A DNA stretch of 64,000 nucleotides from Patescibacteria group bacterium (GTDB lineage Bacteria; Patescibacteriota; JAUYIX01; JBHPHK01). Position 1 is the stretch's first letter. Each line of letters begins with the position of its first letter. A program made the translations under genes and the position numbers. The notes under the pieces are model-generated. The model made no database searches. It had not been told where the DNA came from and worked only from the letters and a program-made list of their open reading frames with translations. Positions 28,755-46,554 of the stretch are shown piece by piece. The DNA is taken from assembly GCA_042569365.1 (NCBI GenBank), contig JBHPHK010000004.1:6113-70112 (forward strand). Reading direction: 5' to 3'.

Positions 28755-28801
28755 GATGCGTCAAATTTTTCGATTTTGTCCCTTGGGACGTTTGTACAGA
28801 C

Positions 28802-29199: not shown

Positions 29200-29211
29200 T
29201 TGTGTATAAAG

Positions 29212-29243: not shown

Positions 29244-29269
29244 ATGGTTTGATTTTTGAAGTTGGCTGG

Positions 29270-29844: not shown

Positions 29845-31050
29845 CTAAGCCTTCTTCTTCCTCAAATCAAAACTAATATTCTTGCTTGCTTCTACCTGAG
29901 GCTGATCAAAAGGATTAACTCCGCGCATCCAGCCAGAGTACACCGCAGCATACTGCAGGAAGCCCATCAGTTCGCCGACATTCTCTTCATCCAGCTTTGT
30001 TATCGAAGTCGTGATGACTGGAATCCCGATATTGATCGCATCCTCATAAGTACCACGGTATTCATACTCCATAACCTTCGAGAGAGGAATGTCATCCAAA
30101 TCCGCGAGCGTCCCATCACGCAGAGGAATGTCACCGATCTCTTCCGGAATATATGTTGCGTGATCATGGAAAAAAGTCTCCGGACGAATAAACCAACCGA
30201 CCACGTTCTTGCCTCCACCAAAGAAACGCTGGTTGGTGTGGTGCTGAGACTGCGGGCCTTCGGCGCCGTACATAGTTTGGCCGCCGCCCTCTTTACTGAC
30301 GGATTCATGGAAAAGCTGGACGATCAATTCTGAAATACCGGCTAGTTCATGTGAATAGATTGGGAAAAATATTTCACTGAAACCTTTTTTCTCCAACTGA
30401 TAGAAAGCGGCTGCCACTTGTAGGGCAGGATTTTTTTCCAGCGGAACGGAAGGCGCGCACTTAGCATGCATGCTCTTAAAACCGGCATGGAGTTTGTCGA
30501 TATCAATCTCGAGCAAAGCAGTTGGGAGGAGGGCAGCCTCTGTGCCACCGATAAAACGACCGCCAATGTCCGGGTGCATGAAAGTCTTCCATTTGAGGCG
30601 ATCGGCTATTTCTCGCAGAGCTCCGTTGGGACCTGTGATCGCCGCAATCTTATATTTATGTCGTGAAAAGAATAGTGTGTTTTCGAGTTGTTCGACGTTG
30701 GTACCGGATTTGCTGATCGTTACCACGACAGAATTATCTGCCGGAGCAAAGCGCATCAGGTGTTCCAGATAGTTTGGATCAGACGTGTTGCAGATGAAAA
30801 CTTTGTGTTTGGATTGATGCCAGCCCAGGGCCTCGTAGATCGCCTTGTAGCTGGTGATCGAGCCACCGCGGCCGACGACAATAATGTTGCGGGCATTGCA
30901 ACAGGTCTTCACAGATTCCTTGATTCCTTCCAAGTCCGCTTCGTATTGTGCGAAAGCGGGAACTTTTTGTTTGGCAATAGAGGCGAGCTCTTTTTTAAGC
31001 CCTGCGCCGATGTCTTTGATAGTTGTGTGTTGTAGGTCGTTTTTAAGCAT
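29845..31050 (-). CDS. pgi: glucose-6-phosphate isomerase (short SIS-type PGI)
   Basis: 401 aa with PGI-type motifs (IVVGRGGSITSYKAI, VVTISKSGTNVEQ, GGRFIGGTEAALLP, NPFDQPQVEASK). Confidence 0.8.
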   Translation of the reverse strand: MLKNDLQHTTIKDIGAGLKKELASIAKQKVPAFAQYEADLEGIKESVKTCCNARNIIVVGRGGSITSYKAIYEALGWHQSKHKVFICNTSDPNYLEHLMRFAPADNSVVVTISKSGTNVEQLENTLFFSRHKYKIAAITGPNGALREIADRLKWKTFMHPDIGGRFIGGTEAALLPTALLEIDIDKLHAGFKSMHAKCAPSVPLEKNPALQVAAAFYQLEKKGFSEIFFPIYSHELAGISELIVQLFHESVSKEGGGQTMYGAEGPQSQHHTNQRFFGGGKNVVGWFIRPETFFHDHATYIPEEIGDIPLRDGTLADLDDIPLSKVMEYEYRGTYEDAINIGIPVITTSITKLDEENVGELMGFLQYAAVYSGWMRGVNPFDQPQVEASKNISFDLRKKKA

Positions 31051-31084
31051 AGATACAGTATAACAAATAATTTGGTTTTGGTCT

Positions 31085-31121
31085 GGTGGGCCTCCCCCGA
31101 CCTCCCGCCCCTAATTTTAGA
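31085..31121. repeat. GC-rich 37-nt element, copy 1
   Basis: The sequence GGTGGGCCTCCCCCGACCTCCCGCCCCTAATTTTAGA matches the copy at 35293..35329 at 35 of 37 positions. It lies in the queA-pgi intergenic region. Confidence 0.7.
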
Positions 31122-31142
31122 GGAAAGGAGATTAAATTTTGA

Positions 31143-32195
31143 TTAAATAATCAACATCGCATCCCCAAAACTATAGAAACGATACTTCTGTTTGATTGCT
31201 TCAGCGTAGGCTTGTTTGATAATTTCAATTCCAGAATCAGGGTCTGTAGAATCTGCGACAAAAGACGCAACAAGCGCTAGCAGCGAAGTTTTCGGCAAAT
31301 GGAAATTCGTAATCAGGCCATCAACAATTTTCCACTCATACCCAGGGTAAATATAAATGTCTGTTTCTCCTTCAAGTGCGCCTGATGCTCCAAATGTTTC
31401 CAAAACACGTGCTGCGGTTGTGCCCACGGAGATCACGCGTCTTTTTTCTTGTTTGGCTTGTTTGATTTTTTCCGCGATCTCAGGATCGATCTCAAAATAT
31501 TCAGAATGGATCTGATGTTCTTCAATCTCATCTGTCCGAATAGGCTGGAAAGTCCCAAGGCCTACATGCAAAGTCACGTACTCGATCTGCACGCCTTGTT
31601 TTTCTAAAGAAGCCAACAGCTCCGGCGTAAAATGAAAGCCGGCCGTGGGAGCGGCCGCCGATCCCTCTTTGTCAGGATCAGCAAAAACGGTCTGGTACTG
31701 ATCTTTGCGAGACTTTGAATTCGTAATGTAGGGAGGTAGGGGAACTTCGCCATACTTTTCAAGCTTTTTCCTAAAATCTGCACCCTTCACATTAAAACGC
31801 AGTAAATATGTTCCACCGGAGAGTTTTTCTTCCATCTTCGCACTCAATAAATCATCGCCAGTCTTGCTTATTATCAAATCCTCACCCAGCTTTAGCTTTT
31901 TACCAGGTTTTACTAGTGCTTCCCATGTGTCTTCACCTTTTTGTGCCAACAACAATATCTCAAACTCATGACTAGCCTCATTCACGGCCCGCAACCTTGC
32001 CGGGATCACTTTAGAATTATTCAAAACTAAAACATCGCCGTCTCGTAAGAACTGACCTATATTCTTGAATATATAGTGGCTAAAATTATTTGTCCCTCGC
32101 TCAAGATGAAAAAGACGCGACTCATCTCGCGGCTCTAAAGGTTCCTGGGCGATAAGCTCTTTCGGGAGCTCGTAATCAAAAAGATCACTCCGCAT
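31143..32195 (-). CDS. queA: S-adenosylmethionine:tRNA ribosyltransferase-isomerase
   Basis: It has the N-terminus MRSDLFDYELPKELIAQEP, the motif PLPPYI and the C-terminus YRFYSFGDAMLI, all typical of QueA. Confidence 0.9.
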   Translation of the reverse strand: MRSDLFDYELPKELIAQEPLEPRDESRLFHLERGTNNFSHYIFKNIGQFLRDGDVLVLNNSKVIPARLRAVNEASHEFEILLLAQKGEDTWEALVKPGKKLKLGEDLIISKTGDDLLSAKMEEKLSGGTYLLRFNVKGADFRKKLEKYGEVPLPPYITNSKSRKDQYQTVFADPDKEGSAAAPTAGFHFTPELLASLEKQGVQIEYVTLHVGLGTFQPIRTDEIEEHQIHSEYFEIDPEIAEKIKQAKQEKRRVISVGTTAARVLETFGASGALEGETDIYIYPGYEWKIVDGLITNFHLPKTSLLALVASFVADSTDPDSGIEIIKQAYAEAIKQKYRFYSFGDAMLII

Positions 32196-32890
32196 TATTG
32201 CTGATGATCAGTATTTGTCTGTGTAGCAGAAGGGGTCGTAGGATGTTGCGGAACACCTGTCTGGCTTTGCTGACGCACAATCTGAATAATATTATCAAGC
32301 TCAAGTGTCCTGCCGCGTACATTTTCCCATGAACGGTACATGTTCTGTAATTCCTTTTCCCCGTGGCGGTTATACTGGTCGCGCAGATGGATGATGATGT
32401 CCGAAATTTTCTCAGGATGGGATAGTTTCAAAAATTGGAAAAGTTCTACAGCAGCAGCGGTCTGGATCAGAAGCGTGCCGAACTGCATGAATGTAGGAAT
32501 CACTCCGACTATTTTTGTCGAGACGTCCTGGATCTCCGTTAGAGACAGTTCAGAAACACTACGGTTGAACAAAGCATTTTGTTTGATCTGTACAACGCGG
32601 GAGGTCGTCACGATAAAAACATCCAGATAATAATCGATCCAGCCAATAAACAAGAACAGGAACAAGAACATTAAAAACATGACAGAGAGAAGCTGGATGA
32701 TGCGGCCAGTTTCCTCTCGTGCCAATTCGGGAAAGAAATATCCCAGGGCGAAAATCAAGGCAGTGAAAAGTACGGCCAAAATTACTGTGAAAGTGACGTG
32801 TCCTAGGAAAACTGTCCAGTGGCGACGCATAAAGACGATGATGCGCTCATCGGGTCTTTGGTTTGGGAAATAGTGGGCAGCGTCTTGCAT
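32195..32890 (-). CDS. membrane protein with bacterial PH (bPH_2/YdbT-like) domain
   Basis: Two N-terminal TM helices are followed by the pattern DVFIVTTSRVVQIKQNALFNRSVSELSLTEIQDV. The call is by motif only. Confidence 0.55.
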   Translation of the reverse strand: MQDAAHYFPNQRPDERIIVFMRRHWTVFLGHVTFTVILAVLFTALIFALGYFFPELAREETGRIIQLLSVMFLMFLFLFLFIGWIDYYLDVFIVTTSRVVQIKQNALFNRSVSELSLTEIQDVSTKIVGVIPTFMQFGTLLIQTAAAVELFQFLKLSHPEKISDIIIHLRDQYNRHGEKELQNMYRSWENVRGRTLELDNIIQIVRQQSQTGVPQHPTTPSATQTNTDHQQ

Positions 32891-32901
32891 AATGTGAGAG
32901 T

Positions 32902-33261
32902 TTAAACAGGGGCAATTGCCAAGACAGCGCCGATTACTGCAAGAGCAACTGAGAGGCCGATAAAAATCAGGGTACTAACCAAAGATTGGTCGCCCTTAAA
33001 ACCGTATTTGAGCATATGGTAAACGGCGAATGCAGCAAAGGTGATATAGACAGCAATAAATATAAAGAAGATTATTTGGAAGATCAGCAGGGCAAGATCT
33101 CCAATCTCATCAGCAAAAAAGAATGTGACAGCGACAGCGCCGCCTATCAAAAGCACGCCAATTGATGTAAAAGTAATCAGCGGTGCGTTGCGGCGCTTGT
33201 CTTCCATGGGTGGCTGAACGATATGTTCGCCAAATTGTGGTCGGTCTGGATCTCCTAGCAT
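32902..33261 (-). CDS. small membrane protein (119 aa, 3 TM), hypothetical
   Basis: The ORF has three clear hydrophobic helices and is tightly spaced with the next gene. Confidence 0.55.
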   Translation of the reverse strand: MLGDPDRPQFGEHIVQPPMEDKRRNAPLITFTSIGVLLIGGAVAVTFFFADEIGDLALLIFQIIFFIFIAVYITFAAFAVYHMLKYGFKGDQSLVSTLIFIGLSVALAVIGAVLAIAPV

Positions 33262-33348
33262 AGTCAGGAATGTATTAATAATCGATTTAATTATAAGTAA
33301 AGACGCTTAGATAGGCCAGAGGACAAGGAATAGACCTGATTCTTAGAG

Positions 33349-34392
33349 TTAAAGAAGTTTATCTGGACCGTTTTCTGGCGGTTCAATATCTAAATGCTTG
33401 TAGGCCTTTTCAGTGGCGGAACGTCCACGTGGTGTACGTGCCAGAAATCCTCCCTGCAGCAAAAATGGCTCGATAACTTCTTCGAGAGTGTCTTCTTCGG
33501 CCGCGGTAGCTGCAGCAAGAGTACCAATACCAACTGGTCCGCCCTTGAATTGTTCTATTATAGTATTTAAAATGCGCCGGTCGTTTTCGTCGAGGCCTTC
33601 CGGGTCGATACTTAAAAGATCCAAAGCTTCGAGGGCTAAGTCTTTCGTTATTTTTCCGTCACCTTTGACTTGGGCATAGTCTCTAACACGTTTTAATAAA
33701 CGATTGGCGATACGTGGTGTGCGGCGCGCTCTTTGTGCGATTGCTTCGATCGAATCTGCGTCCGCATTAACATCTAAAATCTTTGAGGAACGCTCCAAGA
33801 TATCTTTAATTTCATCTTCAAGGTAAAAGTCCAGCTGGTGTGTAGCACCAAAGCGATCACGGAATGGGGAAGAGAGTAGACCGATGCGTGTAGTTGCTCC
33901 GATAATAGTGAAACGGGGGAGGTCTAGTCTAATGGATTTTGCGGAAGGGCCTTTGCCGATCACGATGTCGAGGACGTAGTCTTCCATTGCCGGGTATAGC
34001 ACCTCTTCTACGATTTTATTCATGCGGTGGATTTCGTCTATAAAGAGAACGTCATTATCTTCCAAGTTTGTGAGGATCGCACCAAGGTCGCCTGCTTTTT
34101 CAATGGCGGGGCCGGATGTCGTTTTGATATTCACGCCCATTTCATTGGCGATGATGTTGGCAAGCGTAGTTTTGCCAAGACCGGGAGGGCCGTAAAGCAG
34201 CACATGTTCGATCGGCTCTTTTCTCTTTTTAGCCGCCTCCATAAATATATTCAAATTGTCTTTAACCTTTTTCTGGCCGACGTAGTCCTTTAGTTTTTTC
34301 GGGCGTAGGCTAAGATCTAGCGAAGCATCTTCGTTTTCTGGCGTAGGAGAGACTACGCGGTCGATCTTTTTCTTTTTGCGTTCAATAGCCAT
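33349..34392 (-). CDS. ruvB: Holliday junction branch migration helicase RuvB
   Basis: It has the Walker A motif [11 protein letters not shown], the Walker B motif LFIDEIH and the pattern [15 protein letters not shown]. Confidence 0.95.
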
Positions 34393-34458
34393 AGTGATGA
34401 ATCATAGCATTTTTACGGGCTCTATTCAAATTGTAGCATAAAGAAAAAGCGGACCTCG

Positions 34459-34956
34459 TTAAGATCCGCTTTTTGTGTCGATATACTGTATTACGAATTC
34501 CTTTCCAGGCAATTCGCTGGTCCTTTCCACCTCGATGACTCGATCAAGAAGATCGCGATCAAACTCACCGTTGAGAAACGCAGCGAGACCAAATGTGGCC
34601 TCTAGCAAGTTTCTGCGTACCCAACTATCGTCGTATTTTTTCCAGTTCTCTTCGGGATCAGACAGCTTGTGTTTGAGGAGCTGGTGCCAGACGTCATGTG
34701 CGTTTTTTTCTGCAATCTGTAAGAAGGTTTCCATAACCTTGGTTCTTGCAGCCTTGTGCACAAGGTCATCGCTCGTGAAGCAGACGAAACCGAAGCATTG
34801 CATGAGACTGCGACAAGCTACGACAACGTCGATTCTGTCGACGAGAACTTCAAGTTCTTTGATGAAGTTGTCCCAGTGAGACTTGGTAGGAGAGGTGTTC
34901 AGTTGAGCGACTGCTCGGAGGAAACTCATACGGTAAGTTTGCGTGTTCGCTTCCAT
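34459..34956 (-). CDS. hypothetical protein (165 aa), self-contained cassette
   Basis: My preferred start is ATG 34956, preceded by GGAGGTCGTT. The promoter is TTGACA-17-TAGGGT, with its -35 at about 35025. The terminator hairpin includes the stop codon. I recognise no family. Confidence 0.6.
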   Translation of the reverse strand: MEANTQTYRMSFLRAVAQLNTSPTKSHWDNFIKELEVLVDRIDVVVACRSLMQCFGFVCFTSDDLVHKAARTKVMETFLQIAEKNAHDVWHQLLKHKLSDPEENWKKYDDSWVRRNLLEATFGLAAFLNGEFDRDLLDRVIEVERTSELPGKEFVIQYIDTKSGS

Positions 34957-35061
34957 AACGACCTCCAGTTCAAGGTTATTTTTCGTAATGTACAAGACAC
35001 TCTACCCTAGCAGATTTAGCATTATTTGTCAATAGAATTGAACAAGTTTATTACTCAGAGC

Positions 35062-35090
35062 TTGACAATTCTTAAAATCCATGCTATGGT
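35062..35090 (+). promoter_or_regulatory. sigma70-type promoter (TTGACA-17-TATGGT) of the orphan RNA
   Basis: It has an exact -35 hexamer and a 17-nt spacer. No ORF follows. Confidence 0.55.
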
Positions 35091-35096
35091 TCTATG

Positions 35097-35271
35097 TTAT
35101 TCGAAAACGCCCTTTTAAGATAGTGAATAAAAAGAACCGCGTAGGTTCTGTAGACGCCCCCAAGAATATTGCGTAGTCTAGAAGGAATACTTGGTATTTA
35201 AACTTGCTTTTAATATCACTGAGCATCCCCTCGTACGTAATATTTGTCTACAGAGCCTAGGCGGTTTTTTG
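35097..35271 (+). ncRNA. candidate small RNA (~175 nt), class unknown
   Basis: The unit runs from promoter to U-run without an ORF. A 21-nt arm at 35135..35155 pairs with 35246..35266 (one mismatch, one G-U). The helix extends a further 12 bp (AAGAAUAUUGCGUA/UACGUAAUAUUU), and GGTTTTTT follows. Unpaired C-rich segments are GCCCCC (35156..35161) and CCCCUCG. Confidence 0.55.
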
Positions 35272-35291
35272 TTACCTAGTAATATAAAAAC

Positions 35292-35329
35292 GGGTGGGCC
35301 TCCCCCGACCCCCCACCCCTAATTTTAGA
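35292..35329. repeat. GC-rich 37-nt element, copy 2 (also a hairpin/terminator-like structure)
   Basis: The sequence is GGGTGGGCCTCCCCCGACCCCCCACCCCTAATTTTAGA. The stem GGGTGGG/CCCACCC is flanked by T-runs on both strands. It lies between the sRNA candidate and the VanW gene stop. Confidence 0.7.
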
Positions 35330-35379
35330 AAATAGGGAATGAAATAAATCTAAAATAACTATTAAACTATTTTAATATC

Positions 35380-37293
35380 TTAGTGCGAGAATTGCGTCAC
35401 TGGACGATAGCTGGAATAGAAGCTCTTACTATGTAAAACCGAGCCATCAGCGGCTGTCACCAAATGCTCCCAGGATGCTTTCATAGAATTGCCAGGACCC
35501 CAGCCCCAGTTGGATGGGATTGTTTCTTTAACTGTGCGTCCATCATCCGTTCCGTAAAATTCGAAGGTCAATGTATTTCCGGAGACAAATGTCTGAATCA
35601 AGACATAACTTGGCGTGTCATTGATGAACTTCAAGTCCACCGCACCTATATAAATAGTTGCGTCAGCACCAGCGCGACCATAATAATCATAATAAGAAAC
35701 AACGAAAGAATGATTGTGTCGCTCTGTTATATCTAGACCCGACCAGAAAGCGGCGCGGAAAGCGGTCGTTGAGACTTGGCATAAGCCTCCGCCCCATTCT
35801 GGGATAATTTTGTTTCCTTTAATGACAAGTTCCGGCAAAAATCCGCTATTTGCATCCACCTCTCCCAAGTGGTCATTGAATGAAAACTCTTCACCGGGCG
35901 CAATTAGGAGTCCGTCATATTTCTCAGCGCCAAATGCAATATTATAGCGGCGATTAGCGGGACTGCCTGAAAAATCTGAAGTTCCGCGTCCGATCAACTC
36001 TGTGATGCCCAAACCATCGAGCATAGACTCGTTAATATCTGCTTCCGAAGTAATAACATGAGCCGTAATTTCTCGCGGCTTGCTTGTTTGATTCAAACTG
36101 AATAGAGCATCTTCCATCAGCTCTTCCATGTCAACGGCCTGGCCTTTGGTGCTAGGCGTCTTGATGACTAAATCTCCATCTATCCAGTCCAATCGCAGGT
36201 CATCTCCTGGGTTATTTAATGCTGCTCCGACTTTATTAACTAAAGCCCGTTGGAGACTGTCCGGCTTGATGCCGGCAAAACTTTGGACAGGAGAACCAAG
36301 TGTTGCATGCGACCCCAGACCAATATACGCGGCATAGTGACTAGGGCTAGGCAATGTAGTCTGCAGCGGAGGCTTGGCCGGGTTACTGCCCTCATAAAGT
36401 TCATGCGGAATCATCAGAAGGCGCGTCTGTAGATCATCGGACAGATAATTCGCTTCAATATATTGAATGCCCTGATCTTGCAACTCTTCGGTATTTTCTA
36501 AAATAGATGAATCAAGATTCTCAAAACCGATCCACTGCTGGATCTCATTAGCGGCATATTGCCACTTTTGATTTTCATAGGTAACGATTACAGGCTTGCT
36601 CCAGAGCGTGCGGGCGACCTGTTGCGCTTTCAAAGTGTCCCATTTTGTAACCTGCGGCTGTGTTTCGGCAAACCAGACTTTGATCGGCTCAGTATTGAGT
36701 TGATTAAAGTTTTCACGTAGGTTGATCAAGAGTAGATCACGATTAGCCTCATGACCAACCTTTTCCGGCGTGACTTCTAGTCCACCATTCGCAAACTTGA
36801 TAGTCGCATTGACCGCTGGGCGTTCAATATCTTTGAAATTCTCAGAAAGCAACGCCAAGAGTTTATTCTCATCAAAAGAGTAAGAAAGCTCCAGATCGTT
36901 TTTATCAAAACAGGCTACTACGCGGTTGCTCAGGTTAGCTACAAAATTATTGGGATGGCTGTAGCTTAGCGCCTCGTCAACAGAGCCGATGATGTTAAAA
37001 GCCAGGTTGATATCCGCCGGGAAGAAAGAGAATTCCTTATCATCCGTTAATAAAACTATAGGTTTTTCCAAAAAATAGTCTATCTGCTCTTGTAGGGTGT
37101 ATAAAGCGGCCTGCTGCGTCTGTCCGCTAACTGAAACAGGGCCGATCGACAAATTAGCCATCAGCTGGTCATTATACTCAGCGCTATTTACTTGCGCTAA
37201 AAACCCAAAAAAACAAAGAAGAACAGCGAGTCCAACGATTAGAAAAACTAGCCGCACCGAGAATAAGTTGCGTTGATTTGATGATTCTTCCAT
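35380..37293 (-). CDS. VanW-family protein (N-terminal TM anchor)
   Basis: It has the C-terminal VanW signature (GGGLCQVSTTAFRAAFWSGLDITERHNHSF) and an N-terminal hydrophobic anchor. Confidence 0.8.
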   Translation of the reverse strand: MEESSNQRNLFSVRLVFLIVGLAVLLCFFGFLAQVNSAEYNDQLMANLSIGPVSVSGQTQQAALYTLQEQIDYFLEKPIVLLTDDKEFSFFPADINLAFNIIGSVDEALSYSHPNNFVANLSNRVVACFDKNDLELSYSFDENKLLALLSENFKDIERPAVNATIKFANGGLEVTPEKVGHEANRDLLLINLRENFNQLNTEPIKVWFAETQPQVTKWDTLKAQQVARTLWSKPVIVTYENQKWQYAANEIQQWIGFENLDSSILENTEELQDQGIQYIEANYLSDDLQTRLLMIPHELYEGSNPAKPPLQTTLPSPSHYAAYIGLGSHATLGSPVQSFAGIKPDSLQRALVNKVGAALNNPGDDLRLDWIDGDLVIKTPSTKGQAVDMEELMEDALFSLNQTSKPREITAHVITSEADINESMLDGLGITELIGRGTSDFSGSPANRRYNIAFGAEKYDGLLIAPGEEFSFNDHLGEVDANSGFLPELVIKGNKIIPEWGGGLCQVSTTAFRAAFWSGLDITERHNHSFVVSYYDYYGRAGADATIYIGAVDLKFINDTPSYVLIQTFVSGNTLTFEFYGTDDGRTVKETIPSNWGWGPGNSMKASWEHLVTAADGSVLHSKSFYSSYRPVTQFSH

Positions 37294-37388
37294 GTACTTT
37301 GACAGTACCAGTTAAAAAACCTCTCTGTCAAGCCTAGAAAGGAAAAAAGCACCATCTTAGAGACAGTGCTTTTTAATGTCAGAAGTTG

Positions 37389-37838
37389 TTATTCTGATGT
37401 CTTGTGCTTGATCTCCCAGCCCGTTGGGAGGATCAGATCCGTCATCAGGAGAGTCTTGGAATCGTTATGGAGAACTCCCGACGATGCCGAGAGAATTCTC
37501 AAGTAATATTCCATGTTCGTGAGCAGATCATCAGGCAGTTCTTTGTCGGGCTGCAAGAGATCATGCTGCGGATGTACGTTGACCCTCGGCATTTTCGTCT
37601 TTCCGTCAACAACGACTTTTCTGACAGGAACGATCAGCGCATAATGTTTGTAGATGAGTTTGACAAACCCTTTTGGCGCCAGAGAGTTGGGATTAAAGAG
37701 ATAGATCTCTTTGTTGCTGAGTTGTTCGTCCAGGCTTTCGTATGAAAAACGAATACCTTCAAACTTCTCAGCCAAGGTTCTGGTGTATGCTCGGATCATA
37801 ACCTTAAGAGCAGGGTCAGTTACAGATTTCAAATCCAT
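37389..37838 (-). CDS. hypothetical protein (149 aa), self-contained cassette
   Basis: My preferred start is ATG 37838, preceded by GGAGGTACCAAA. The promoter is TTGACA-17-TACCAT (37883..37911). I recognise no family. Confidence 0.6.
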   Translation of the reverse strand: MDLKSVTDPALKVMIRAYTRTLAEKFEGIRFSYESLDEQLSNKEIYLFNPNSLAPKGFVKLIYKHYALIVPVRKVVVDGKTKMPRVNVHPQHDLLQPDKELPDDLLTNMEYYLRILSASSGVLHNDSKTLLMTDLILPTGWEIKHKTSE

Positions 37839-37949
37839 TTTGGTACCTCCGTATGTAAATTGGTAAGAGTGCAAAGTTTTTCATGGTAGCTCGTAGGGGC
37901 AGTATTGTCAAATGAAAAAGCGCCTCGTAAAGAAGCGCTTTAAGGGGGT

Positions 37950-38345
37950 TTATTTTTTGATTAATCTATAGAACAGACTGCCAAAACAGATAGCACTGAC
38001 GATAGTGGTACAAATGTACGTTGCTATGACAATGAGGCATGATTTGTCGCTATAGATAGTATAGCTTGGAGCTACGCAGTAGACGCAGACGATACCGATA
38101 ATCAGATGATAAATCATATAGATTATGTTGCAGCGTCGGAAATATCTGTAAGGTATATCTGTAAACAGCGTTGTCAACGTTGTGAAAGCCACAAAAGCAA
38201 TGATCAGATATGACCAAATGCCGACAACTTCCACTTTATCAGTGAGTGCGCCGTGCATGATGCCACAGATCAGGAGAATTGATAATAGTACTGTTGCTCC
38301 GAACATGGTCCAGAGGCTAGCAACAACTTCACTTTTTGCAGACAT
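37950..38345 (-). CDS. hypothetical 4-TM membrane protein (131 aa), self-contained cassette
   Basis: AGGAGGCATTCT precedes the ATG. The promoter is TTGACA-17-GAGAAT (38394..38422). The terminator at 37915..37940 has a 7-bp GC stem plus a U-run. Confidence 0.6.
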   Translation of the reverse strand: MSAKSEVVASLWTMFGATVLLSILLICGIMHGALTDKVEVVGIWSYLIIAFVAFTTLTTLFTDIPYRYFRRCNIIYMIYHLIIGIVCVYCVAPSYTIYSDKSCLIVIATYICTTIVSAICFGSLFYRLIKK

Positions 38346-38568
38346 AGAATGCCTCCTTTCGTGGGTTATTAAGTTGGGAAATATCGAATTATCATTCTCC
38401 TCTTATCGCAGGAATCTGTCAAATGAAAAAGCACTGATGCTATGCTATAAGTCAGCTCGGATAATGATTGTCATGGAACTGGATCCAGCCTATTGCAGCT
38501 CTCCCTCTTTTTCATAGTCGGAGAACATATCAATATAAAAACCGCCTTTGCCGGCGGTTTTAAGGAAG

Positions 38569-41292
38569 CTATTTCTTTACTTTAGCGGTTGCTTTCTTGC
38601 GCGGCTTAGATTTTGCGGTAGCTTTCACTCTTTCTTTTGTTCCTGTGAAAACTAGCTCATCTGCTTTCAGGTCGATCGTAATAGTCTGACCAGACTTAAA
38701 CTTGCCGGCGAGTAGCATTTCCGATAACGGATTTTCAATCCGGCGCTGAATTTCGCGACGTAGCGGACGCGCCCCAAAACTTGGGTCAAAACCTTTTTTG
38801 GCTAAGAAAGTTTTGGCCTTACCTGTGATTTTCATTTTGATATTTTGGGCACGTAAGAGTTTTTCTAAGTCTTTGAGCATCAATGTGACAATCTGTTTGA
38901 TCTGCTCCTCGGTCAGGGCGTGGAAGACAATAATCTCATCGACTCGGTTTAAAAATTCAGGACGGAAATGTTTTTTAAGCTCTTCTAACAAATGCTCGCG
39001 GAGCTTCTCGTGCTTGCGGTCCGCTCGTTCTTGTTTAGTATTATCATTGTCATCCTCAAAACCAAAACTCTTCGCTTTCGAGTCCTGGATCATTTCAGAG
39101 CCGATATTGGAAGTCGCGATGATAATCGTATTTTTGAAATCGACTGTGCGGCCCTTTGCGTCAGTCAAACGGCCGTCTTCCATGATTTGTAACAGGATAT
39201 TGAAGACTTCGGGATGAGCCTTCTCGATTTCGTCGAGTAAGATGACGCTGTAAGGTTTGCGGCGTACTTTCTCGGTGAGCTGTCCGCCTTCTTCATAGCC
39301 GACATAACCTGGAGGAGAACCGACGAGTCGAGAGACTGTGTGTTTTTCCATATATTCGGACATATCGACGCGGATCATCGATTCTTCGTCTCCAAAGATA
39401 AGCTCTGAGAGCGCTTTGGAAAGTTCAGTCTTACCAACTCCAGTCGGTCCCAAGAAAATAAACGAACCGATCGGGCGATTAGGGTCTTTCAGGCCAGCGC
39501 GTCCACGGCGGACGGCTTCAGAGATCGCTTTGATCGCCTCATTTTGTCCGATGACACGTTCGTGCAAGCGATCCTCTAATTTCAAAAGTTTATCAAGCTC
39601 TTCTTCAGCAAGTTCTGTCACCGGAATACCGGTCGACTCTGCGACAACTTCTTCAATATCGCGCGGAGAAAGGACGACGTTGCCTTGGACAGATGTCTTC
39701 TTCCACTCTTCGCGAAGTTCGCGGAGTTCATCTTCGGCCTCGGCTAATTTTTTCTGTAAGTTACGGGCGCGTGTTTTAGTTTTACCTTTCTTGGCAGACT
39801 CCAACTCTTTAGCGAGCTGTTTGATAGACTTCTCGCGTTCTTTAAGTTCTTCGGGAGTATTGATATTAGCTAAACGGATCTTGGCGGCGCCCTCGTCGAT
39901 TAGGTCGATCGCTTTATCAGGCAAGAAACGATCATTAACATAACGATCGGAAAGGGAAGCGGCCGCAACGATTGCTTCGTCTGAGATCTCGACTTTGTGG
40001 TGCGCTTCGTATTTATCACGGAGGCCGTGGAGGATTTGGATAGTTTCCTCGACACTTGGCTCGCTAACAATAATAGGCTGGAAGCGGCGCTCGAGCGCAG
40101 CATCTTTTTCAATATGTTTTTTATATTCATCTAAAGTCGTAGCACCAATCATCTGAAGATCGCCGCGAGAAAGTGAGGGTTTGAGCATGTTCGAAGCATC
40201 CATTGCGCCTTCAGCAGCTCCGGCACCTACGATAGTGTGAAGCTCATCTATAAAGATCACAATATCTTTCTTGGCAGCTTCGATTTCCTTCATAACCTTC
40301 TTCATGCGGTCTTCAAAGTCACCACGGTGCTTGGTACCGGCGATCATGCTGGAAAGATCGAGACTAATAACTCGTTTATCTTTTAAGGTCTCTGGAATAT
40401 TTCCGCTGACGATGCGTTGCGCCAAACCTTCTGCGATCGCTGTCTTACCTACGCCTGGTTCACCGATCAAGACGGGGTTGTTTTTGGTACGACGAGAAAG
40501 GATCTGAACGACACGTCCGACTTCACGAGCGCGTCCCACGACAGGATCAAGCTTTCCTTCCTTCGCCATTGAAGTAAGGTCGCGAGAGTATTCATCGAGA
40601 GTTGGTGTAGTGCTGCGTCGTTTTTTGCGCGGCTTATCTCCAGTTCCAATAAAGTTAATAACGGCACTGCGCGCTTTCGTATGATCAACTGCATATTTAT
40701 CAAAGACTTGCGCGGCCATACCTTCACCTTCACGGATCAGGCCGAGCAAAATGTGCTCCGAGCCGACATAGTTGTGCTCCATATTGCGGGCTTCATGGAA
40801 AGCAAGCTCCAAAACCTTCTTGGCACGCGGAGATAGGTCAAACTGGCGTGTCTCAGCGTCGCCTTTCTGAATATTTTCTTCGATATACGCCTTAAGATCA
40901 TCAGTTTTAATACCCAGATCCTCAATAATCTTTACAACCACTTCTTTTTCTTCCAGCAATCCCAAAAGCAAATGTTCTGTGTCGATATGGCGCGCTTTAT
41001 AATGATGCGCGGCTTGGGCAGACTCCTCCAAAACCTTCTTCGCACGTTCTGAGAAAAACTCAACGATATTAACCTGCTCGGGCTGAGAAGCGCGTTGCGA
41101 CTGGGGGGAGAGAGGGGCTCCACCGGAAGCACCGGCGCCGCCCATCATAAATGAGTTTAAAAACGAGTCGTTACCAAAAAACATGCGTTCTTCTGCACAC
41201 GTATGACAAAGGTGTAGATAGGATGTGCGACCGTTGACGGTCTGACGGATTGAGATTGCCGCTGGACGGCGGCCACAAGATTGACAGAGCAT
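38569..41292 (-). CDS. clpC: ATP-dependent Clp protease ATP-binding subunit ClpC with N-terminal CxxC..CxxC zinc-ribbon extension
   Basis: It has two AAA+ modules ([15 protein letters not shown]; [14 protein letters not shown]), Clp_N repeats and a short coiled-coil middle domain. The N-terminus is [11 protein letters not shown]...HLCHTCAEE. Confidence 0.9.
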
Positions 41293-41358
41293 ATATTAAG
41301 GTTAACTAGCTTATATAATGATAGCGCGAAACAGGGTAATCATCATGTGGAAGTAAAA

Positions 41359-41385
41359 TTAGCAGTCTCAATAATAGAGTGCTAA
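41359..41385. promoter_or_regulatory. CIRCE-like inverted repeat (HrcA operator)
   Basis: The sequence TTAGCAGTC-N9-GAGTGCTAA has one mismatch to the consensus TTAGCACTC-N9-GAGTGCTAA. It lies just downstream of the clpC promoter. Confidence 0.75.
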
Positions 41386-41399
41386 TTATCAGCTACTTT

Positions 41400-41428
41400 A
41401 TTGTATATAGAGGCATTAGTCATGTCAA
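41400..41428 (-). promoter_or_regulatory. sigma70-type promoter of clpC (TTGACA-17-TACAAT)
   Basis: The minus strand has exact hexamers. The CIRCE element starts about 15 nt downstream of the -10. Confidence 0.65.
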
Positions 41429-41432
41429 GAAC

Positions 41433-41463
41433 AAAAAAACGCCTCTTTTCAAAGAAGCGCTTT
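41433..41463 (-). terminator. rho-independent terminator after hsp20
   Basis: The minus strand reads AAAGCGCTTCTTTGAAAAGAGGCGT followed by TTTTTTT. Confidence 0.6.
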
Positions 41464-41488
41464 ATCACGGTCTCTTATGTATAAACGG

Positions 41489-41908
41489 TTAGCCCGTTAC
41501 TTTTATTTGTTTTGGTTTTGCTATTTTGATTTTCGGAAGCTTCACAATCAAGATGCCGTTTTTGATCTCCGCCTTAACCTTATTGGCGTCGACTTCGACA
41601 GGCAATGCAACACTACGAGAAAAACTACCCCAGTAGCATTCCTGATAGAAATAGTCTTTTTCATCGACCTTTTCTTCAATTGCACGCTCGCCACGAATAG
41701 TCAGCATATTATCATCCAGTGTGACACTAATGTCTTCTGGTAATACACCAGCGATCGTAGATTTTACGACAACTGTAGTTTCTGTTTGGAACATATCAAT
41801 TGTAAGCTGTCCCTCTAATTCCTCGGTATTCTCCAAATCCGTATCAAGAATAGTTGGAGAAATTACTTTCGCATCAGCTGTAGTGGTTTTAGTGTTCAAA
41901 TTTGTCAT
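41489..41908 (-). CDS. small heat-shock protein (Hsp20/alpha-crystallin)
   Basis: My preferred start is ATG 41908 (MTNLNTK...). It has the alpha-crystallin pattern (LTIRGERAIEEKVDEKDYFYQECYWGSFSRSVALPVEVD...NGILIVKLPK). A TTGATT-17-TATAAT promoter lies upstream. Confidence 0.85.
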   Translation of the reverse strand: MTNLNTKTTTADAKVISPTILDTDLENTEELEGQLTIDMFQTETTVVVKSTIAGVLPEDISVTLDDNMLTIRGERAIEEKVDEKDYFYQECYWGSFSRSVALPVEVDANKVKAEIKNGILIVKLPKIKIAKPKQIKVTG

Positions 41909-41985
41909 AAAAAAGTTAGAAATTATCTCAATTCCTTCTTCATTATAGAGAGAACACAACAATAAATCAATCGAGTTAGCATAAC

Positions 41986-42006
41986 AAAAACCCGCCTGCC
42001 GGCGGG
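41986..42006 (-). terminator. rho-independent terminator after the PrsW-like gene
   Basis: The minus strand reads CCCGCC-GGCA-GGCGGG followed by TTTTTG. Confidence 0.65.
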
Positions 42007-42030
42007 CCTTGCAAATCATTTAGGACTTAG

Positions 42031-42735
42031 CTAAAGAGGGGGTTTGAAAAGCCGTAGTTTTCTGCGTTTGACCTCTCGGATACTGCCCGAGAGCAAAATA
42101 TAGAGAACGACCATCAAAAGAACGAGTAAGAAAAGTGTCAAAGGCGTCTGAGATAGAGCAATAAAGTTGTACAAGCCATGCATGATGATACCCACAGCCA
42201 GACCCTCTATCATAAGGCGCGTGCGGTACTGAGGGTAAAATTTAGCAAGACCTAGGTAATAGCCTACAAGGCCACTAGCAAGTGCGTGGAGTAAAGTCGC
42301 AGATACAAGACGGAGAGGCAGTACTTCAGCACCCTCCTGAACAACGATTAAAATGTTTTCAGCGGTTGCAAAACCAAGTGCACCGGTAATCATATAAATA
42401 ACACCATCGATGCCCTCGTCAAAGTGCTTGCTGCGGAACGCGCTCCAGCGTACAGCTGCAAACTTCATAAACTCTTCAACTGGCGCAACGATCAAAAGAG
42501 AGCCGATCGCAAGTGTGAAAAATTCTGTTGAAGAGGAGAAAGGAAAGAAAGTCTCAGCTACCAATTCTAGACCAAGTGCTGGAATCGTAGCTAACATACC
42601 CAAGATAAATACCAAAGCGAGCTGACCTTTCGGTTCTGGTTTATCGCGGTCTTTACGCAAGAACCACCAGAGCCAGAAGAATCCTGGCAGAAGCGCAAGA
42701 GCAATATCCAAAACGATGATCGGCGAAATATCCAT
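42031..42735 (-). CDS. PrsW-family intramembrane metalloprotease
   Basis: The protein is polytopic, with the motifs VEEFMKFAAV and HALASGLVGY plus a later HGLYN motif, all characteristic of PrsW. A TTGACA-17-TACAAT promoter lies upstream (-35 at about 42829). Confidence 0.65.
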   Translation of the reverse strand: MDISPIIVLDIALALLPGFFWLWWFLRKDRDKPEPKGQLALVFILGMLATIPALGLELVAETFFPFSSSTEFFTLAIGSLLIVAPVEEFMKFAAVRWSAFRSKHFDEGIDGVIYMITGALGFATAENILIVVQEGAEVLPLRLVSATLLHALASGLVGYYLGLAKFYPQYRTRLMIEGLAVGIIMHGLYNFIALSQTPLTLFLLVLLMVVLYILLSGSIREVKRRKLRLFKPPL

Positions 42736-42892
42736 GAGATTTAGGTGTATAGCTTATAGTATAACTGATCTGGGATTCTTGAGATCTCTTCAAAAATCGG
42801 AGAATTGTATCAGAAGGTCTCTTCTTTGTCAAGGGCCTTGAATAAATAGGCTATTTCCGGTATCCTATGTAGACGGTAAACAACGGTAAAAT

Positions 42893-43753
42893 ATGCCTAA
42901 AACAGCCTTTCGGGCCAAAATGGACAACTTAATGCAGGACAGTAACAATTGGCTCTTAAAAGGTGCTGAGCCCTTTTTTGATTATGAGGATAAAGTGGAA
43001 ACCAGCCCTGCCAAAACAGCCCTTCTTTTCCTGCACGGTTTCTCTTCTAGTCCGCAAGAAATCAAAGGAATTGCTAAATATTTCGCAGAATTAGGCTATG
43101 GCGTTTCACTGCCTTTGCTGCCCGGCCACGGAACGCACCCTAAAGACCTGAAAGATCAGCGCTGGATGGACTGGTATTTGACGGCAGAAAATAGCTTGAA
43201 AAAATTATTAGGGGCGGGCTATGAAAAAGTAGTTATCGTTGGATCTTCAGTAGGCACAAACTTAAGCCTACTGCTCTCATTTCAATATCAAGATAAGATC
43301 AAGGCACAGATTTGGATCACTCCAGCCCTGCGATTGAGACGTGAAACCTTTTTACGGTTCGGGACATTCATCGTTCACCGATTTGTTCCGTTTTGGAACT
43401 ATAAAAGTAAGCGTCCGATCGACGAATTTAATACTGTTGCTGACAGGTCTGTCTTTGAGGACAGAGTGGCTTACCCGATCAGCCCGTTCCAGGCAGTGGA
43501 GGAGGTTTACCACATCAATGAATTTACACGACGTTCTCTATATCGCAATCAAACTCCAACTCTTGTTCTGCTAGGTAAAAAAGATCGCGTCATTCACGGA
43601 GCTGTTAAAAAAATGCTACAGGAAGAAATTAGGCCGGAGCTTTTGGAGATCAGAGAATTTGAGAATTCCAAACATTTATTGGCGGTAGACTATGACAAAG
43701 AGGAAGTGCGGACAGTTATACGTGATTATTTAGATAAAATTAACCAGAAATAG
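42893..43753 (+). CDS. alpha/beta hydrolase (esterase/lysophospholipase-like)
   Basis: It has the oxyanion-region motif LFLHGFSSS and the nucleophile elbow VGSSVGT. Confidence 0.75.
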   Translation: MPKTAFRAKMDNLMQDSNNWLLKGAEPFFDYEDKVETSPAKTALLFLHGFSSSPQEIKGIAKYFAELGYGVSLPLLPGHGTHPKDLKDQRWMDWYLTAENSLKKLLGAGYEKVVIVGSSVGTNLSLLLSFQYQDKIKAQIWITPALRLRRETFLRFGTFIVHRFVPFWNYKSKRPIDEFNTVADRSVFEDRVAYPISPFQAVEEVYHINEFTRRSLYRNQTPTLVLLGKKDRVIHGAVKKMLQEEIRPELLEIREFENSKHLLAVDYDKEEVRTVIRDYLDKINQK

Positions 43754-43754
43754 T

Positions 43755-44897
43755 ATGAATACTCCAAAACGCATTCTGGTTCTTACTGCTTCGGCTGGCT
43801 ATGGCCATCGCTCGGCGGCGAACAGCATCATCGATGCCCTCAAAGAAGAAAATCCGAACTATGAGATTGAGATTTTTGATACTTGGTCGCTTTTGCCCGC
43901 TTGGCAACACTGGATTTATACGAAAGGCTATGTACTTGCCGGTCGTTTGACGCCCGATTTCTATCGCTTTGTTTATCGCACGATCGTAAATAGTCCCAGG
44001 CATTTAAAAAGCGTCAAAAATGGTTTCCTAAAAAATGCCAGAGGCTTGAATAAATATACCAAGCGTTTTAATCCTGATGTCGTGGTCGCAACGCATGCGC
44101 ACGGTGCTGGAATTGCGCATCATCTGAAAGAACACTTCAAACATGATTTCAAATTAGTCTATGCTTACACGGATTATCATGCGCATAATCTTTTGCGCTA
44201 TGATGCGGTTGATCTATATTGTTTGCCGGCGGAGTCTGTAGCAGATGAACTAAATGCACTAGGAGTTCCTCGCGAAAACATAGCCGTAACTGGTGTCCCA
44301 GTGCGTCGAGAATTTGGGGCATATATCAAACAGTCTGATGCTCGCAAGCAGCTTGGGATTGATCCGGGACGATTCACTGTACTGCTGATGCGCGGCGGTC
44401 ATGCGATTGGCTCGAGCTGGATGAGTCAAGTTTTGAAGCTTGCTCACCAGAAACAACTGGCCGTGAATATTATCGCGGTAACCGGAACAAATGAAATATT
44501 GGAGGATAGGCTAAATCGCTTAGTTTCCAAATATTCTCCAGCGGCCCATAACACTAGCGTGCAGGTGGTTGGTTTTTCAAAAGATATTCCTTTGTTTTTA
44601 GCAGCGGCCGATGTGTATGTTGGCAAGCCTGGCGGTTTGAGTTTATCGGAAGCTCTGACAGTTGGCCGGCCTTTAATCGTAGATAGTGGGATGCCGGGTA
44701 CGGAAGATGGTAACTTGGAATTTGTGAAACGGGAGAAAATTGGGCTCAAAGCAGAGAATCCGCGCGATGTTATTAATCATTTGCGCTACTTTAGCGACAA
44801 TAAAGACAAACTTAAAGAATATAAGAAAAGGGCGCACAGGCTTGGACAGCCTCAAGCGGCTCAGAATATTGCTAAGAACATCGACGGGATCATCTAG
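43755..44897 (+). CDS. diacylglycerol glycosyltransferase (MGDG-synthase/UgtP-like, GT28)
   Basis: It has the N-terminus ILVLTASAGYGHRSAANSI and the C-terminal pattern GKPGGLSLSEAL. It begins 2 nt after the hydrolase gene. Confidence 0.7.
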   Translation: MNTPKRILVLTASAGYGHRSAANSIIDALKEENPNYEIEIFDTWSLLPAWQHWIYTKGYVLAGRLTPDFYRFVYRTIVNSPRHLKSVKNGFLKNARGLNKYTKRFNPDVVVATHAHGAGIAHHLKEHFKHDFKLVYAYTDYHAHNLLRYDAVDLYCLPAESVADELNALGVPRENIAVTGVPVRREFGAYIKQSDARKQLGIDPGRFTVLLMRGGHAIGSSWMSQVLKLAHQKQLAVNIIAVTGTNEILEDRLNRLVSKYSPAAHNTSVQVVGFSKDIPLFLAAADVYVGKPGGLSLSEALTVGRPLIVDSGMPGTEDGNLEFVKREKIGLKAENPRDVINHLRYFSDNKDKLKEYKKRAHRLGQPQAAQNIAKNIDGII

Positions 44898-45309
44898 TTG
44901 TCCCCAAACTGTGTATTACCGAGTGGAGAAATAGTGAATAGATATCTATATCAAAAAAGTGAATTGACTCAATAAAGCCAATTCAGTTTTTGCTTCAGAA
45001 CTGTTATATAAATGCTACGATAAATATGTAATGACCTTTTAGATTGGTGTTGCTATTTGAAGCTTCATTATATTCGGGAGCTGCGTTATTTATCATCTAA
45101 CGACTCTATTAGTAGCGTTGGGTGAACGGTTCTCTTGAACAGTCTAAAAACTTTACTGACCTATTTAAGGTTAACAATTGAATAGCTCAATTGAATTATA
45201 GTCTCTTAATTCCCGGGAAGTGCCCCTCTTCAAAAAGGGTGTTTTCCGGCGTCTAAAAACCGGATATTTGTTTTTCAAAAAGACGCAAACTAGTATATTA
45301 TGACTAAGT

Positions 45310-46446
45310 ATGTTAAGTAAGATTCGTTCAATTTTTACATTTGGCGGCGGCTTTCTCTTGGGAGCCTGGATTGTTTTTATGGGATTTTTTGCGTATCTCC
45401 AGATTAGTGATGCGCAAGTTGAGTACGATGCGAGTCTTTTAAGTCGGCCGCAGGACTTGATCTATGACTTTGACAGTTGGAAGACATACGAAAATGTTAC
45501 TCAGGATTATGAGTTTCAGTATCCGGTGAACTGGTACGCGCAGGACTTTACACTTTTTGTCGGCAGCAACGCTGTGATATCTGATACAGCAGTTCCGCCG
45601 AATGCGCGCTTGCCTGAGTCTCCTCTCGAAGTAAACAAAGGGTTTATCTTAGACGTTTTCATCCGCAAGACTGAAGGCCAGTTAGATCCAGAAAAATGGA
45701 TGAAAGATAATTTGAAAACTTTCGATCCTGAAGCCAGTATTGCCGAGATGCAAAAAATTGAAGTTGCCGGAGAGAATGCACGCTTGGTTACTTTGGAGGT
45801 TGAGGGGACCGATAGCATAAAGTCTAATGCTAGAAATTCATACGAGCTTGTCGTTCTTCCTTATAAAAACGATACCTATTTGATACGGTTGTTTACCGGT
45901 GCTAAAGAAGGGAAGGATTACGAGCCTGTCTTTATGCATTTACTTGAGACATTTACTTTCAAGGACGAGGTTGTAAATGAGCCTTGGACAAAGTACGTAA
46001 ACAAAAACTTAAATTATAGTTTTGAATATCCGGTAGATTGGGAAATAGACGAAGGTAAAAATAATGCGGTAAGAGTTTGGAAAGAATTCGCGCCTGATAA
46101 TACCACTGAAAATCTAAAAGAGCGCGCTGAGTTTTACGTTCGGACGCATAGCTTTCCGAATGGATCAAATCTAGAAAGCTGGATCAATACATATGACAAA
46201 TATAAGGAACGGGGATTAAGACTGATCGATCAAGACAATATTCCGTTTGTGAAGTGGGTCCATGGCATCAAACGCTATTACGGCAAGCCTGATGAGCCGG
46301 GACGCTTCGTAACCCTATTTATTCCGTACAATAATAAGATTTACTGGATCGAGTATAATTTTGTTTTTGATCCGGGTCGCGTTAAGCGCAAGGCGACTTA
46401 TGAGCGCATTCTTTATGATATTTTGAATACACTCGATATTAAGTAG
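45310..46446 (+). CDS. membrane-anchored exported protein with an internal two-fold repeat, hypothetical
   Basis: It has an N-terminal TM helix. Two similar modules begin YEFQYPVNWYAQ and YSFEYPVDWEIDEG. Confidence 0.6.
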   Translation: MLSKIRSIFTFGGGFLLGAWIVFMGFFAYLQISDAQVEYDASLLSRPQDLIYDFDSWKTYENVTQDYEFQYPVNWYAQDFTLFVGSNAVISDTAVPPNARLPESPLEVNKGFILDVFIRKTEGQLDPEKWMKDNLKTFDPEASIAEMQKIEVAGENARLVTLEVEGTDSIKSNARNSYELVVLPYKNDTYLIRLFTGAKEGKDYEPVFMHLLETFTFKDEVVNEPWTKYVNKNLNYSFEYPVDWEIDEGKNNAVRVWKEFAPDNTTENLKERAEFYVRTHSFPNGSNLESWINTYDKYKERGLRLIDQDNIPFVKWVHGIKRYYGKPDEPGRFVTLFIPYNNKIYWIEYNFVFDPGRVKRKATYERILYDILNTLDIK

Positions 46447-46473
46447 GTTCTATTGATATAATGAATGTATATA

Positions 46474-46505
46474 GGGCCCGCCACCCCCGCCTCCACCCTA
46501 AAATA
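46474..46505. repeat. C-rich element related in composition to the 37-nt repeat (copy 3, divergent)
   Basis: The sequence GGGCCCGCCACCCCCGCCTCCACCCTAAAATA lies 50 nt upstream of hisS. It shares the GGGCC..CCCCCG..CCTCC..CCCTAA layout but not the stem. Confidence 0.4.
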
Positions 46506-46554
46506 TCATGAAGAAGATTAAATCAAGATTAAATTTTCATTAAACAAATCTAAA

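Follow-up and report, generated by a model that had tools for sequence, protein, structure and literature searches.

The window analyzed here is a 64 kb stretch of a metagenome-assembled genome from an uncultured member of the Patescibacteria (candidate phyla radiation, CPR). It contains a short GC-rich element in three intergenic copies, copy 1 at 31085-31121, copy 2 at 35293-35329 and a looser relative, copy 3, at 46474-46505. The repeat is real and far beyond what would be expected by chance. Judged from sequence and gene context, our leading and still tentative reading, held at somewhat less than even confidence, is that of a lineage-restricted repeat that would act as a transcription terminator or 3'-end boundary hairpin. 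Its sequence is new, but as an extragenic, GC-rich hairpin that is short and repeated at the ends of genes it is of a familiar kind. The genomes of Patescibacteria are tiny and streamlined and contain hardly any repeated non-coding DNA and, to our knowledge, little work has been done on their transcription signals. An element of this sort shared by the terminator slots of several unrelated genes would be a convenient marker of transcription-unit boundaries in this lineage and would exemplify, on a small scale, the spread of such signals through duplication. A specific role of the loop or of the G-rich strand would make the element a new regulatory device, but present evidence does not indicate one.

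An earlier reading of this DNA, made without database searches (the sequence-only reading), had reported that copies 1 and 2 were identical at 35 of 37 positions, and this was reproduced at the coordinates given above. The two copies together read GGTGGGCCTCCCCCGACC[T/C]CCC[G/A]CCCCTAATTTTAGA, with differences at T31103/C35311 and G31107/A35315, and copy 3 reads GGGCCCGCCACCCCCGCCTCCACCCTAAAATA. The 18-mer GGTGGGCCTCCCCCGACC occurs exactly twice in the window (0.01 expected with up to three mismatches), and the degenerate pattern CCCCCG-N0-1-CCYCC-N1-3-CCCTAAWWTW, which was written to fit all three copies, matched exactly those three in the 64 kb (0.00 expected). All three are strongly C-rich on the plus strand and are the only stretches in the spacers of the window with at least 12 C in 20 nt, in line with their earlier description as GC-rich intergenic islands. 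They are also the top three loci of the window by absolute G4Hunter score (1.9-2.5; three loci at or above 1.9 compared with 0.1 expected).

The similarity extends beyond the core. Copies 1 and 2 can be aligned over 66 nt at 79% identity (repeat family D8), with 35/37 positions identical in the core versus 17/29 in the tail, and the tails carry GATTAAAT-like units at 11 nt spacing. The repeat unit is longer than 37 nt, at roughly 65-95 nt, and consists of a GC-rich core of ~35 nt and an AT-rich tail of ~30-50 nt. The core of copy 3 has only GGGCC, CCCCCG, CCTCC and CCCTAA in common with copies 1 and 2. As the sequence-only reading had proposed, copy 3 is a real relative and more than another C-rich patch, because the module AGATTAAATTTTSATTAAA, a few bases downstream of the core, is shared with copy 1 (0.11 expected) and a three-copy profile aligns all copies over ~93 nt. 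The copies lie 4.2 and 11.2 kb apart, all within 15.4 kb, and an nhmmer search of the window with this profile found no fourth copy save one weak match (E = 1) at 52680-52716. The stretch around that match (52675-52716, TTTCCTCCTCCTGTTTTTAGGGCGGAAGAGATTAAAATAAC) may be a fourth, very degenerate relative and is within the 5' leader region downstream of a minus-strand promoter, TTGACA-17-TGTTATTTT.

The hairpin GGTGGG/CCCRCC described in the sequence-only reading exists, although its loop measures 13 nt and not 12 nt. Its stem, GG(G)TGGG/CCC(R)CC(C), has six pairs in copy 1 and seven in copy 2, so that 12-14 of the 37 bases are paired and the core is not a near-complete palindrome. The G/A difference between the two copies places a U·G pair in the copy 1 stem in the plus sense and a C·A mismatch in the minus sense, which agrees with the earlier remark that this position pairs solely in plus-sense RNA. 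In the minus sense a second small hairpin is possible between the upstream pyrimidine tract and the first G runs. Copy 3 retains a stem of five pairs only (TAGGG/CCCTA), around a loop of 19 nt.

All three copies are located just downstream of a stop codon, with the core 21 nt past that of queA (copy 1), 50 nt past that of vanW (copy 2) and 27 nt past that of a gene for a PsbP-like protein (copy 3). Promoters in the window are of the clear form TTGACA-17-TAnnnT, and its terminators are A-tract/stem/T-tract hairpins that often stand directly before the next promoter. A terminator scan took in the 32 gene ends whose following gap measures 40 nt or more, and about 18 of these carried a strong terminator of the canonical type, with stem energies no higher than -11 kcal/mol. 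At the three gene ends that bear the element, the scan found no other terminator. The sequence-only reading had named as a refutation the case that the element is simply the organism's generic terminator with a variable loop; the generic terminators are different in sequence and in shape, and this identification was rejected.

Copy 2 appears to carry every sequence feature of an intrinsic terminator for vanW and looks like a working one. With its flanking base, the core (35292-35329) consists of the stem GGGTGGG (35292-35298)/CCCACCC (35312-35318) around the C-rich loop, followed by CTAATTTTAGA. In the sense of vanW, which is on the minus strand, the terminator scan reported the stem GGGTGGGGGGTCGGGGGAGGCCCACCC at -14.8 kcal/mol and then the U-tract GTTTTTAT (35284-35291), which together make an intrinsic-terminator-like site, and a signal scan also called a minus-strand terminator at 35311..35296. 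The stem energy falls inside the range of the canonical terminators of this genome (-11 to -20 kcal/mol). A promoter-like TTACTA-17-TAGGCT follows, and this terminator-then-promoter layout matches sites at 37.3, 37.9 and 41.4 kb. The contrast drawn earlier between copy 2, with terminator features, and copy 1, with none, was borne out, as the same scan reported nothing for queA; it likewise reported nothing at the end of the PsbP-like gene.

Copy 1 (31085-31121; plus strand GGTGGG-CCTCCCCCGACCT-CCCGCC-CCTAATTTTAGA) lies between queA and pgi, both on the minus strand, and is directly upstream of the pgi promoter. No U-tract follows it on the minus strand. Its AT-rich tail (31122-31150), in which GATTAAAT occurs twice at a spacing of 11 nt, runs across the stop codon of queA (31143-31145) and includes AGATTAAATTTTGATTAAA at 31129-31147, shared with copy 3. 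On the other side, the end of the core coincides with the expected -35 region of the pgi promoter, whose putative extended -10 box, TGTTATACT (31057-31065, minus strand), was read from the sequence and is conserved in the relative described below. Because this box is only 6 nt before the ATG at 31050, it suggests that the pgi mRNA is leaderless. The pgi start has no Shine-Dalgarno (SD) sequence, and this arrangement (31050-31065, minus strand) is conserved at 5717-5738 of the same relative.

That closest relative is the Logan contig L037, with a QueA 72% identical and the same queA-pgi junction. It keeps AAAATTTAATCTC after the queA stop, ...GGGAGATGGCCCACC / ...CGGGAGATGGCCCACC(T)GA at the junction, and the pgi promoter base for base. 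It is without ~13 nt of the G/C-rich interior, the orthologous site is not prone to form a G-quadruplex (G4), and the junction is enlarged by ~150 nt of inserted sequence, within which lies a 49-nt hairpin. Since the edges are kept and the interior is missing, we take the copy 1 site to be old with constrained edges, and its exact loop sequence is not conserved between lineages. HisS and VanW have no relatives closer than 50% and 33% identity, respectively, and no syntenic spacer was available for copies 2 and 3. The 49-nt hairpin, TGTCATYCCCG(T)CCCYGGATCAAGTCC(G)AGGACAGGCTCCRGTGGGRAT, occurs at 56429-56478 of the window and at 5593-5641 of L037, where it sits in the queA-pgi spacer beside the remnant of copy 1. 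The two are 45/49 identical at non-orthologous sites, and it looks like a small mobile hairpin of both Patescibacteria.

Copy 3 is the most diverged ((TA)GGGCCCGCCACCCCCGCCTCCACCCTAAAATA with its flanking bases) and is found between the PsbP-like gene and hisS, 50 nt before the hisS ATG. Since both of these genes are on the plus strand, its C-rich strand is the sense strand, the reverse of the situation at copies 1 and 2. A transcript of the neighboring genes would thus be G-rich where it crosses copy 1 or copy 2, and C-rich where it crosses copy 3. No U-tract is present at copy 3. Its AT-rich tail (46506-46554), with AGATTAAAT units at an 11-nt period, runs to the hisS start. Upstream, at 46433-46462, is a predicted sigma-70-like promoter on the plus strand, TCGATA-18-TGaTATAAT (10/12 matches, TG present), and if it is used the C-rich core may form the 5' end of the hisS leader. 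This leader also has a possible upstream open reading frame (ORF) of 11 codons (46508-46543, MKKIKSRLNFH*) with a His codon last, which ends 11 nt before the hisS ATG. hisS is without an SD sequence, while strong GGAGG sites occur elsewhere in the genome, and no T-box or other Rfam leader was found in the hisS leader.

Outside the window, the element was sought in large sequence collections that do not include the source genome. The full-core pattern, with 22 specified bases, had 0 matches in 596 Gb of genomes and 0 in the metagenome collection. In viral contigs a 15-mer gave nothing beyond chance matches in GC-rich phages, and blastn against phages and plasmids returned nothing on the core. 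The degenerate pattern had 21 genome and 50 metagenome matches from diverse taxa of many phyla, none of them Patescibacteria; by a rough calculation, these counts are about the chance level. In viral contigs it had one match (L110) and two chance matches. Many of the matches are long G-arm/C-arm hairpins, and GC-homopolymer hairpins beside TAAWWT tracts are a common spacer element in many bacteria. Alone among the matches, a stretch of the metagenome contig Ga0210057_1078093 (L070; 34% GC; 265-292, CCCCCGACCCCCCACCCCTAATTTAGAG) is possibly related to copy 2, with 24 nt identical to its C-rich part on an otherwise unrelated contig, a likeness that may be homology or coincidence. It reads CCCCCGACCCCCCACCCCTAATTT-AGAG and begins ~45 nt beyond the end of an oppositely oriented gene of 254 aa. 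In the sense of this gene it is G-rich, and TTTT follows directly; it has no complementary GGTGGG arm. Two further contigs, from a JGI metagenome (L079 3126-3150, minus strand) and from IMG/VR (L110 3952-3971, minus strand), share the stretch ...GCTCAAGGCTG...CGCC(C)xCGCCAxCCCCGACC(T/A)CCCACCCCTAA. The final ~20 nt of this stretch are similar to the core, but they appear to be part of a different conserved element without an Rfam match, and the two contigs were not taken as homologs.

Several other identities were considered for the copies and rejected. Rfam 15 at gathering thresholds reported one tRNA only in the whole window, E-value scans of the three loci gave only noise (E of 0.24 or higher), and no tRNA or tmRNA gene is at or near any copy, which leaves no place for a fragment of a known RNA. 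A small proline-rich ORF, as which the cores can be read (G(G)PPP...* to TAA), was rejected because an upstream stop closes each frame and there is no start codon; it is further disfavored in that both differences between copies 1 and 2 alter the amino acid. The region of 31.1-35.3 kb was also not a mobile island bounded by att-type direct repeats, given its content (queA, two membrane proteins, ruvB and one protein without a Pfam match) and the recurrence of the ruvB-to-pgi gene order in the relative. A full-text literature search returned nothing relevant to the element.

We propose that the copies belong to a small family of repeats confined to a single, poorly sampled lineage of Patescibacteria, whose units would lie at transcription-unit boundaries, in the slot after the stop codon that is usually occupied by a hairpin terminator in this genome. 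The core, a short all-GC stem closing a 13-nt loop that is C-rich on one strand and G-rich on the other, would serve as a terminator or 3'-end boundary where it is active at all. Copy 2 would be the working-looking intrinsic terminator, copy 1 a version that has become leaky or degenerate in the space separating queA from the pgi promoter, where read-through into pgi may be tolerated, and copy 3 an inverted relative of greater age that has decayed. That copies 1 and 2 are nearly identical even in the loop could be the result of a recent duplication or gene conversion and would not need selection on the loop; this is the most economical explanation because copy 3 and the L037 ortholog have diverged. 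The sequence-only reading had taken the conserved loop as a sign of a more specific role. This could not be upheld, as the loop of copy 3 differs, L037 is without most of the core, and only two copies share the loop, which are near-identical throughout as such an event would leave them. A terminator or boundary family is the simplest account since it covers position, shape and context; in addition, no other class fitted in the Rfam, tRNA/tmRNA and ORF searches at the copies, and G-arm/C-arm hairpins next to TAAWWT tracts are common in many other bacteria.

Compared with known intrinsic terminators, the element is alike in being a GC-rich stem-loop shortly past a stop codon, and at copy 2 GUUUUUAU comes after an all-GC stem of 7 bp that is about as stable as the other terminators of the genome. 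Several observations weigh against a terminator or boundary function. The 13-nt loop is long for an intrinsic terminator (3-8 nt), and a U-tract immediately 3' of the stem is present at copy 2 and missing at copies 1 and 3. Copy 1 has the C·A mismatch in its gene-sense stem in addition to the missing U-tract. Copy 3, almost without a stem at 5 bp, is inverted with respect to the gene that precedes it and is downstream of the predicted hisS promoter. The conserved block of copies 1 and 2 extends on the plus-strand side (CCCCTAATTTTAGA) and not on the minus-strand side where the U-tract would be, and the folding energies of all six strands are within the noise of shuffled sequence (z of +0.2 to -1.2). 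The shared plus-strand orientation of the three copies, with a chance probability of 0.25, is a further point. The element also differs from the other terminators of the genome, which are unrelated A-tract/stem/T-tract hairpins, in that its sequence is shared between sites.

Less probable than a terminator or boundary hairpin, but the most serious competitor to it, is a short dispersed repeat of selfish or neutral nature. It would be REP- or MITE-like (repetitive extragenic palindrome; miniature inverted-repeat transposable element), or what is left of a longer G-arm/C-arm hairpin after most of one arm was lost, and would have been copied into tolerant spacers without a function of its own. 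Near-identical copies at unrelated loci are what such a repeat would give, and the drop from 35/37 in the core to 17/29 in the tail looks as if a unit of ~37 nt had moved. The 49-nt hairpin indicates that small mobile hairpins occur in this lineage, and in L070 the C-rich portion of copy 2 is present but the G arm is not. A short stem with a long one-sided loop would moreover be the expected leftover of a deletion in a long GC hairpin. However, only three copies occur in 64 kb, and these are clustered; neither terminal inverted repeats nor a duplicated target site are common to the sequences that flank copies 1 and 2, which is also unlike a MITE. No transposase was found among the ten copy-flanking genes scanned against Pfam, a scan that covered the flanking genes only. 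Copy 1 is not a clean insertion, as L037 has orthologous sequence at its edges, and all three copies occupy the same type of slot, just after a stop codon.

REP/REPIN elements are repetitive extragenic palindromes mobilized by RAYT (Y1) transposases, with tens to hundreds of copies per genome and often at gene 3' ends. The element resembles them in being ~35 nt long, GC-rich, extragenic, hairpin-capable, repeated and located at gene 3' ends. It is unlike them in the 2-3 copies seen in 64 kb, which share one orientation and form no inverted pairs, in its 6-7 paired bases of 37 in place of a near-complete palindrome, and in the lack of a conserved GTAG head; the same flanking-gene scan found no RAYT gene. 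The REP-like family suggested in the sequence-only reading gained no support here, the copies not being in inverted pairs. G-arm/C-arm hairpin repeats recovered with the degenerate pattern (L052, L072, L080) also have C runs broken by single G, A or T, and CCCTAA with an AT tract, in spacers. They differ in having a full G-rich arm and stems of 15-20 bp at -30 to -56 kcal/mol, of which the window copies keep GG(G)TGGG only, and the likeness is limited to composition and to the search pattern that found them.

A sequence-specific binding site is unlikely, either in DNA for an operator, roadblock or insulator protein or in RNA, with the core GGGCC...CCCCTAA read in either orientation. It would account for the high conservation of 37 nt, unpaired positions included, and for GGCCCACC, directly upstream of the pgi -35 region, which is kept in L037 despite saturated divergence. 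A DNA site that works in both orientations would also reconcile copy 3 with copies 1 and 2. Nevertheless, the core does not form a palindrome, no protein is known as a candidate to bind it, the flanking genes are functionally unrelated (pgi, queA, vanW, hisS), each copy is at a different distance from its nearest promoter, and copy 3 shares only the four short motifs listed above.

Slightly less likely still is a module of plus-strand RNA, in which the anti-SD-like C-rich loop (CCUCCCCC) would pair with SD sequences or the C-rich tract would load Rho to stop plus-strand or antisense transcripts. The U·G pair of copy 1 works in the plus sense only, the conserved flank CCCCUAAUUUUAGA is 3' of the hairpin in that sense, and the genome has strong GGAGG SD sequences (spacers at 29708, 38346, 48690 and 52635). 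Copy 3 is just downstream of a good plus-strand promoter, and a strong one at 35062-35090 is directed toward copy 2, but a transcript from the latter would meet a long hairpin and U6 before reaching copy 2, and no plus-strand promoter was predicted next to copies 1 or 2. The loop is different in copy 3 and largely absent in L037, and no Rfam family matches. In Firmicutes, C-rich-loop RNAs (RsaE/RoxS type; terminator hairpin 14 of S. aureus RNAIII) expose a C-rich, SD-complementary motif in a hairpin. The element would be alike in such a hairpin, possibly also a terminator, and unlike in that two of its three copies have the C-rich strand antisense to the flanking genes. As a Rho loading site, its C-rich tract of about 22-27 nt is short compared with rut sites (~60-80 nt, C-rich, G-poor and unstructured) and is C-rich in the gene sense at copy 3 only. 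We give the same low weight to a strand-specific module in the form of an arm-less G-rich RNA terminator, as L070 might suggest, or of a plus-strand anti-SD hairpin that would titrate SD sequences or ribosomes in a streamlined CPR cell.

Least probable is a G-quadruplex on the minus strand (or an i-motif on the plus strand) that would act on replication or transcription, possibly in place of a termination hairpin. One strand of the element is very G-rich, and the copies lead the G4Hunter ranking on the same strand. They are located 23, 27 and 38 kb from the likely replication origin, where dnaA, dnaN and recF stand in a row (6593-10661; 6.6-10.7 kb) adjoining the cumulative GC-skew minimum, with a 294-nt spacer of 28% GC at 8033-8326. 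In L070 the G-rich sequence follows a gene and leads directly into TTTT without a complementary arm, but its homology is uncertain. A canonical quadruplex requires four tracts of G3+ (G3+N1-7), whereas each copy has three such runs; a regex for four tracts of at least three G with loops of 1-7 nt matched none of them, and only G2+ versions matched. With three such runs, the copies could form two-tetrad or bulged quadruplexes at most. The orthologous L037 site is not G-rich, the G-rich strand of copy 3 is the template strand, unlike in copies 1 and 2, and with n = 3 the shared strand has the chance probability already given. The G-quadruplex role proposed earlier found no backing, and the anti-SD, G4 and REP readings are all unsupported here, though each keeps some probability.

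The surroundings of copy 2 contain further structured sequence. Its AT-rich tail (35330-35379) holds members of repeat families D5, D6 and D8, and 35339-35373 is 86% identical to 28004-28038 in another spacer, the common AT-rich module being AAATCTAAAA.AAC.ATTAAACTATTTT. That second spacer lies upstream of a gene for a signal-peptide protein, whose true start is likely 27956 and not the GTG at 28228 of the listed ORF, and a nearby hairpin, GGCTCCCCCT...AGGGGGAGCC (28050-28095), looks like a minus-strand terminator. At 35131-35276, 17 nt from copy 2, is a long imperfect hairpin of ~145 nt flanked by A5 and T6, AAAAAGAACCGCGTAGGTTCTGTAGAC...GTCTACAGAGCCTAGGCGGTTTTTT. The 235 nt of plus strand at 35096-35330, copy 2 included, fold at -72.5 kcal/mol (z = -6.0), and the minus strand at 35125-35262 folds with z = -3.7. 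The strong plus-strand promoter at 35062-35090 (TTGACA-17-TGcTATGGT) is ~40 nt upstream of the long hairpin, and a canonical minus-strand terminator (35149-35133) is inside it. The hairpin has no Rfam match and could be a small RNA gene or a MITE.

Elsewhere in the window, two stretches of 1.3 and 1.5 kb (27957-29269 and 59944-61445) are without an ORF of at least 100 aa and could hold small genes or RNAs. The first is 46% GC with several stable-looking hairpins; in the second, Rfam finds only a tRNA-Glu (60499-60573). Two sets of tandem paralogs were also observed: three adjacent genes of ~350 aa at 19532-22766, with a 267-nt block at 69-72% identity, and two adjacent genes of ~720 aa at 54221-58820, with blocks at 73-79% identity and an offset of 2449 nt.

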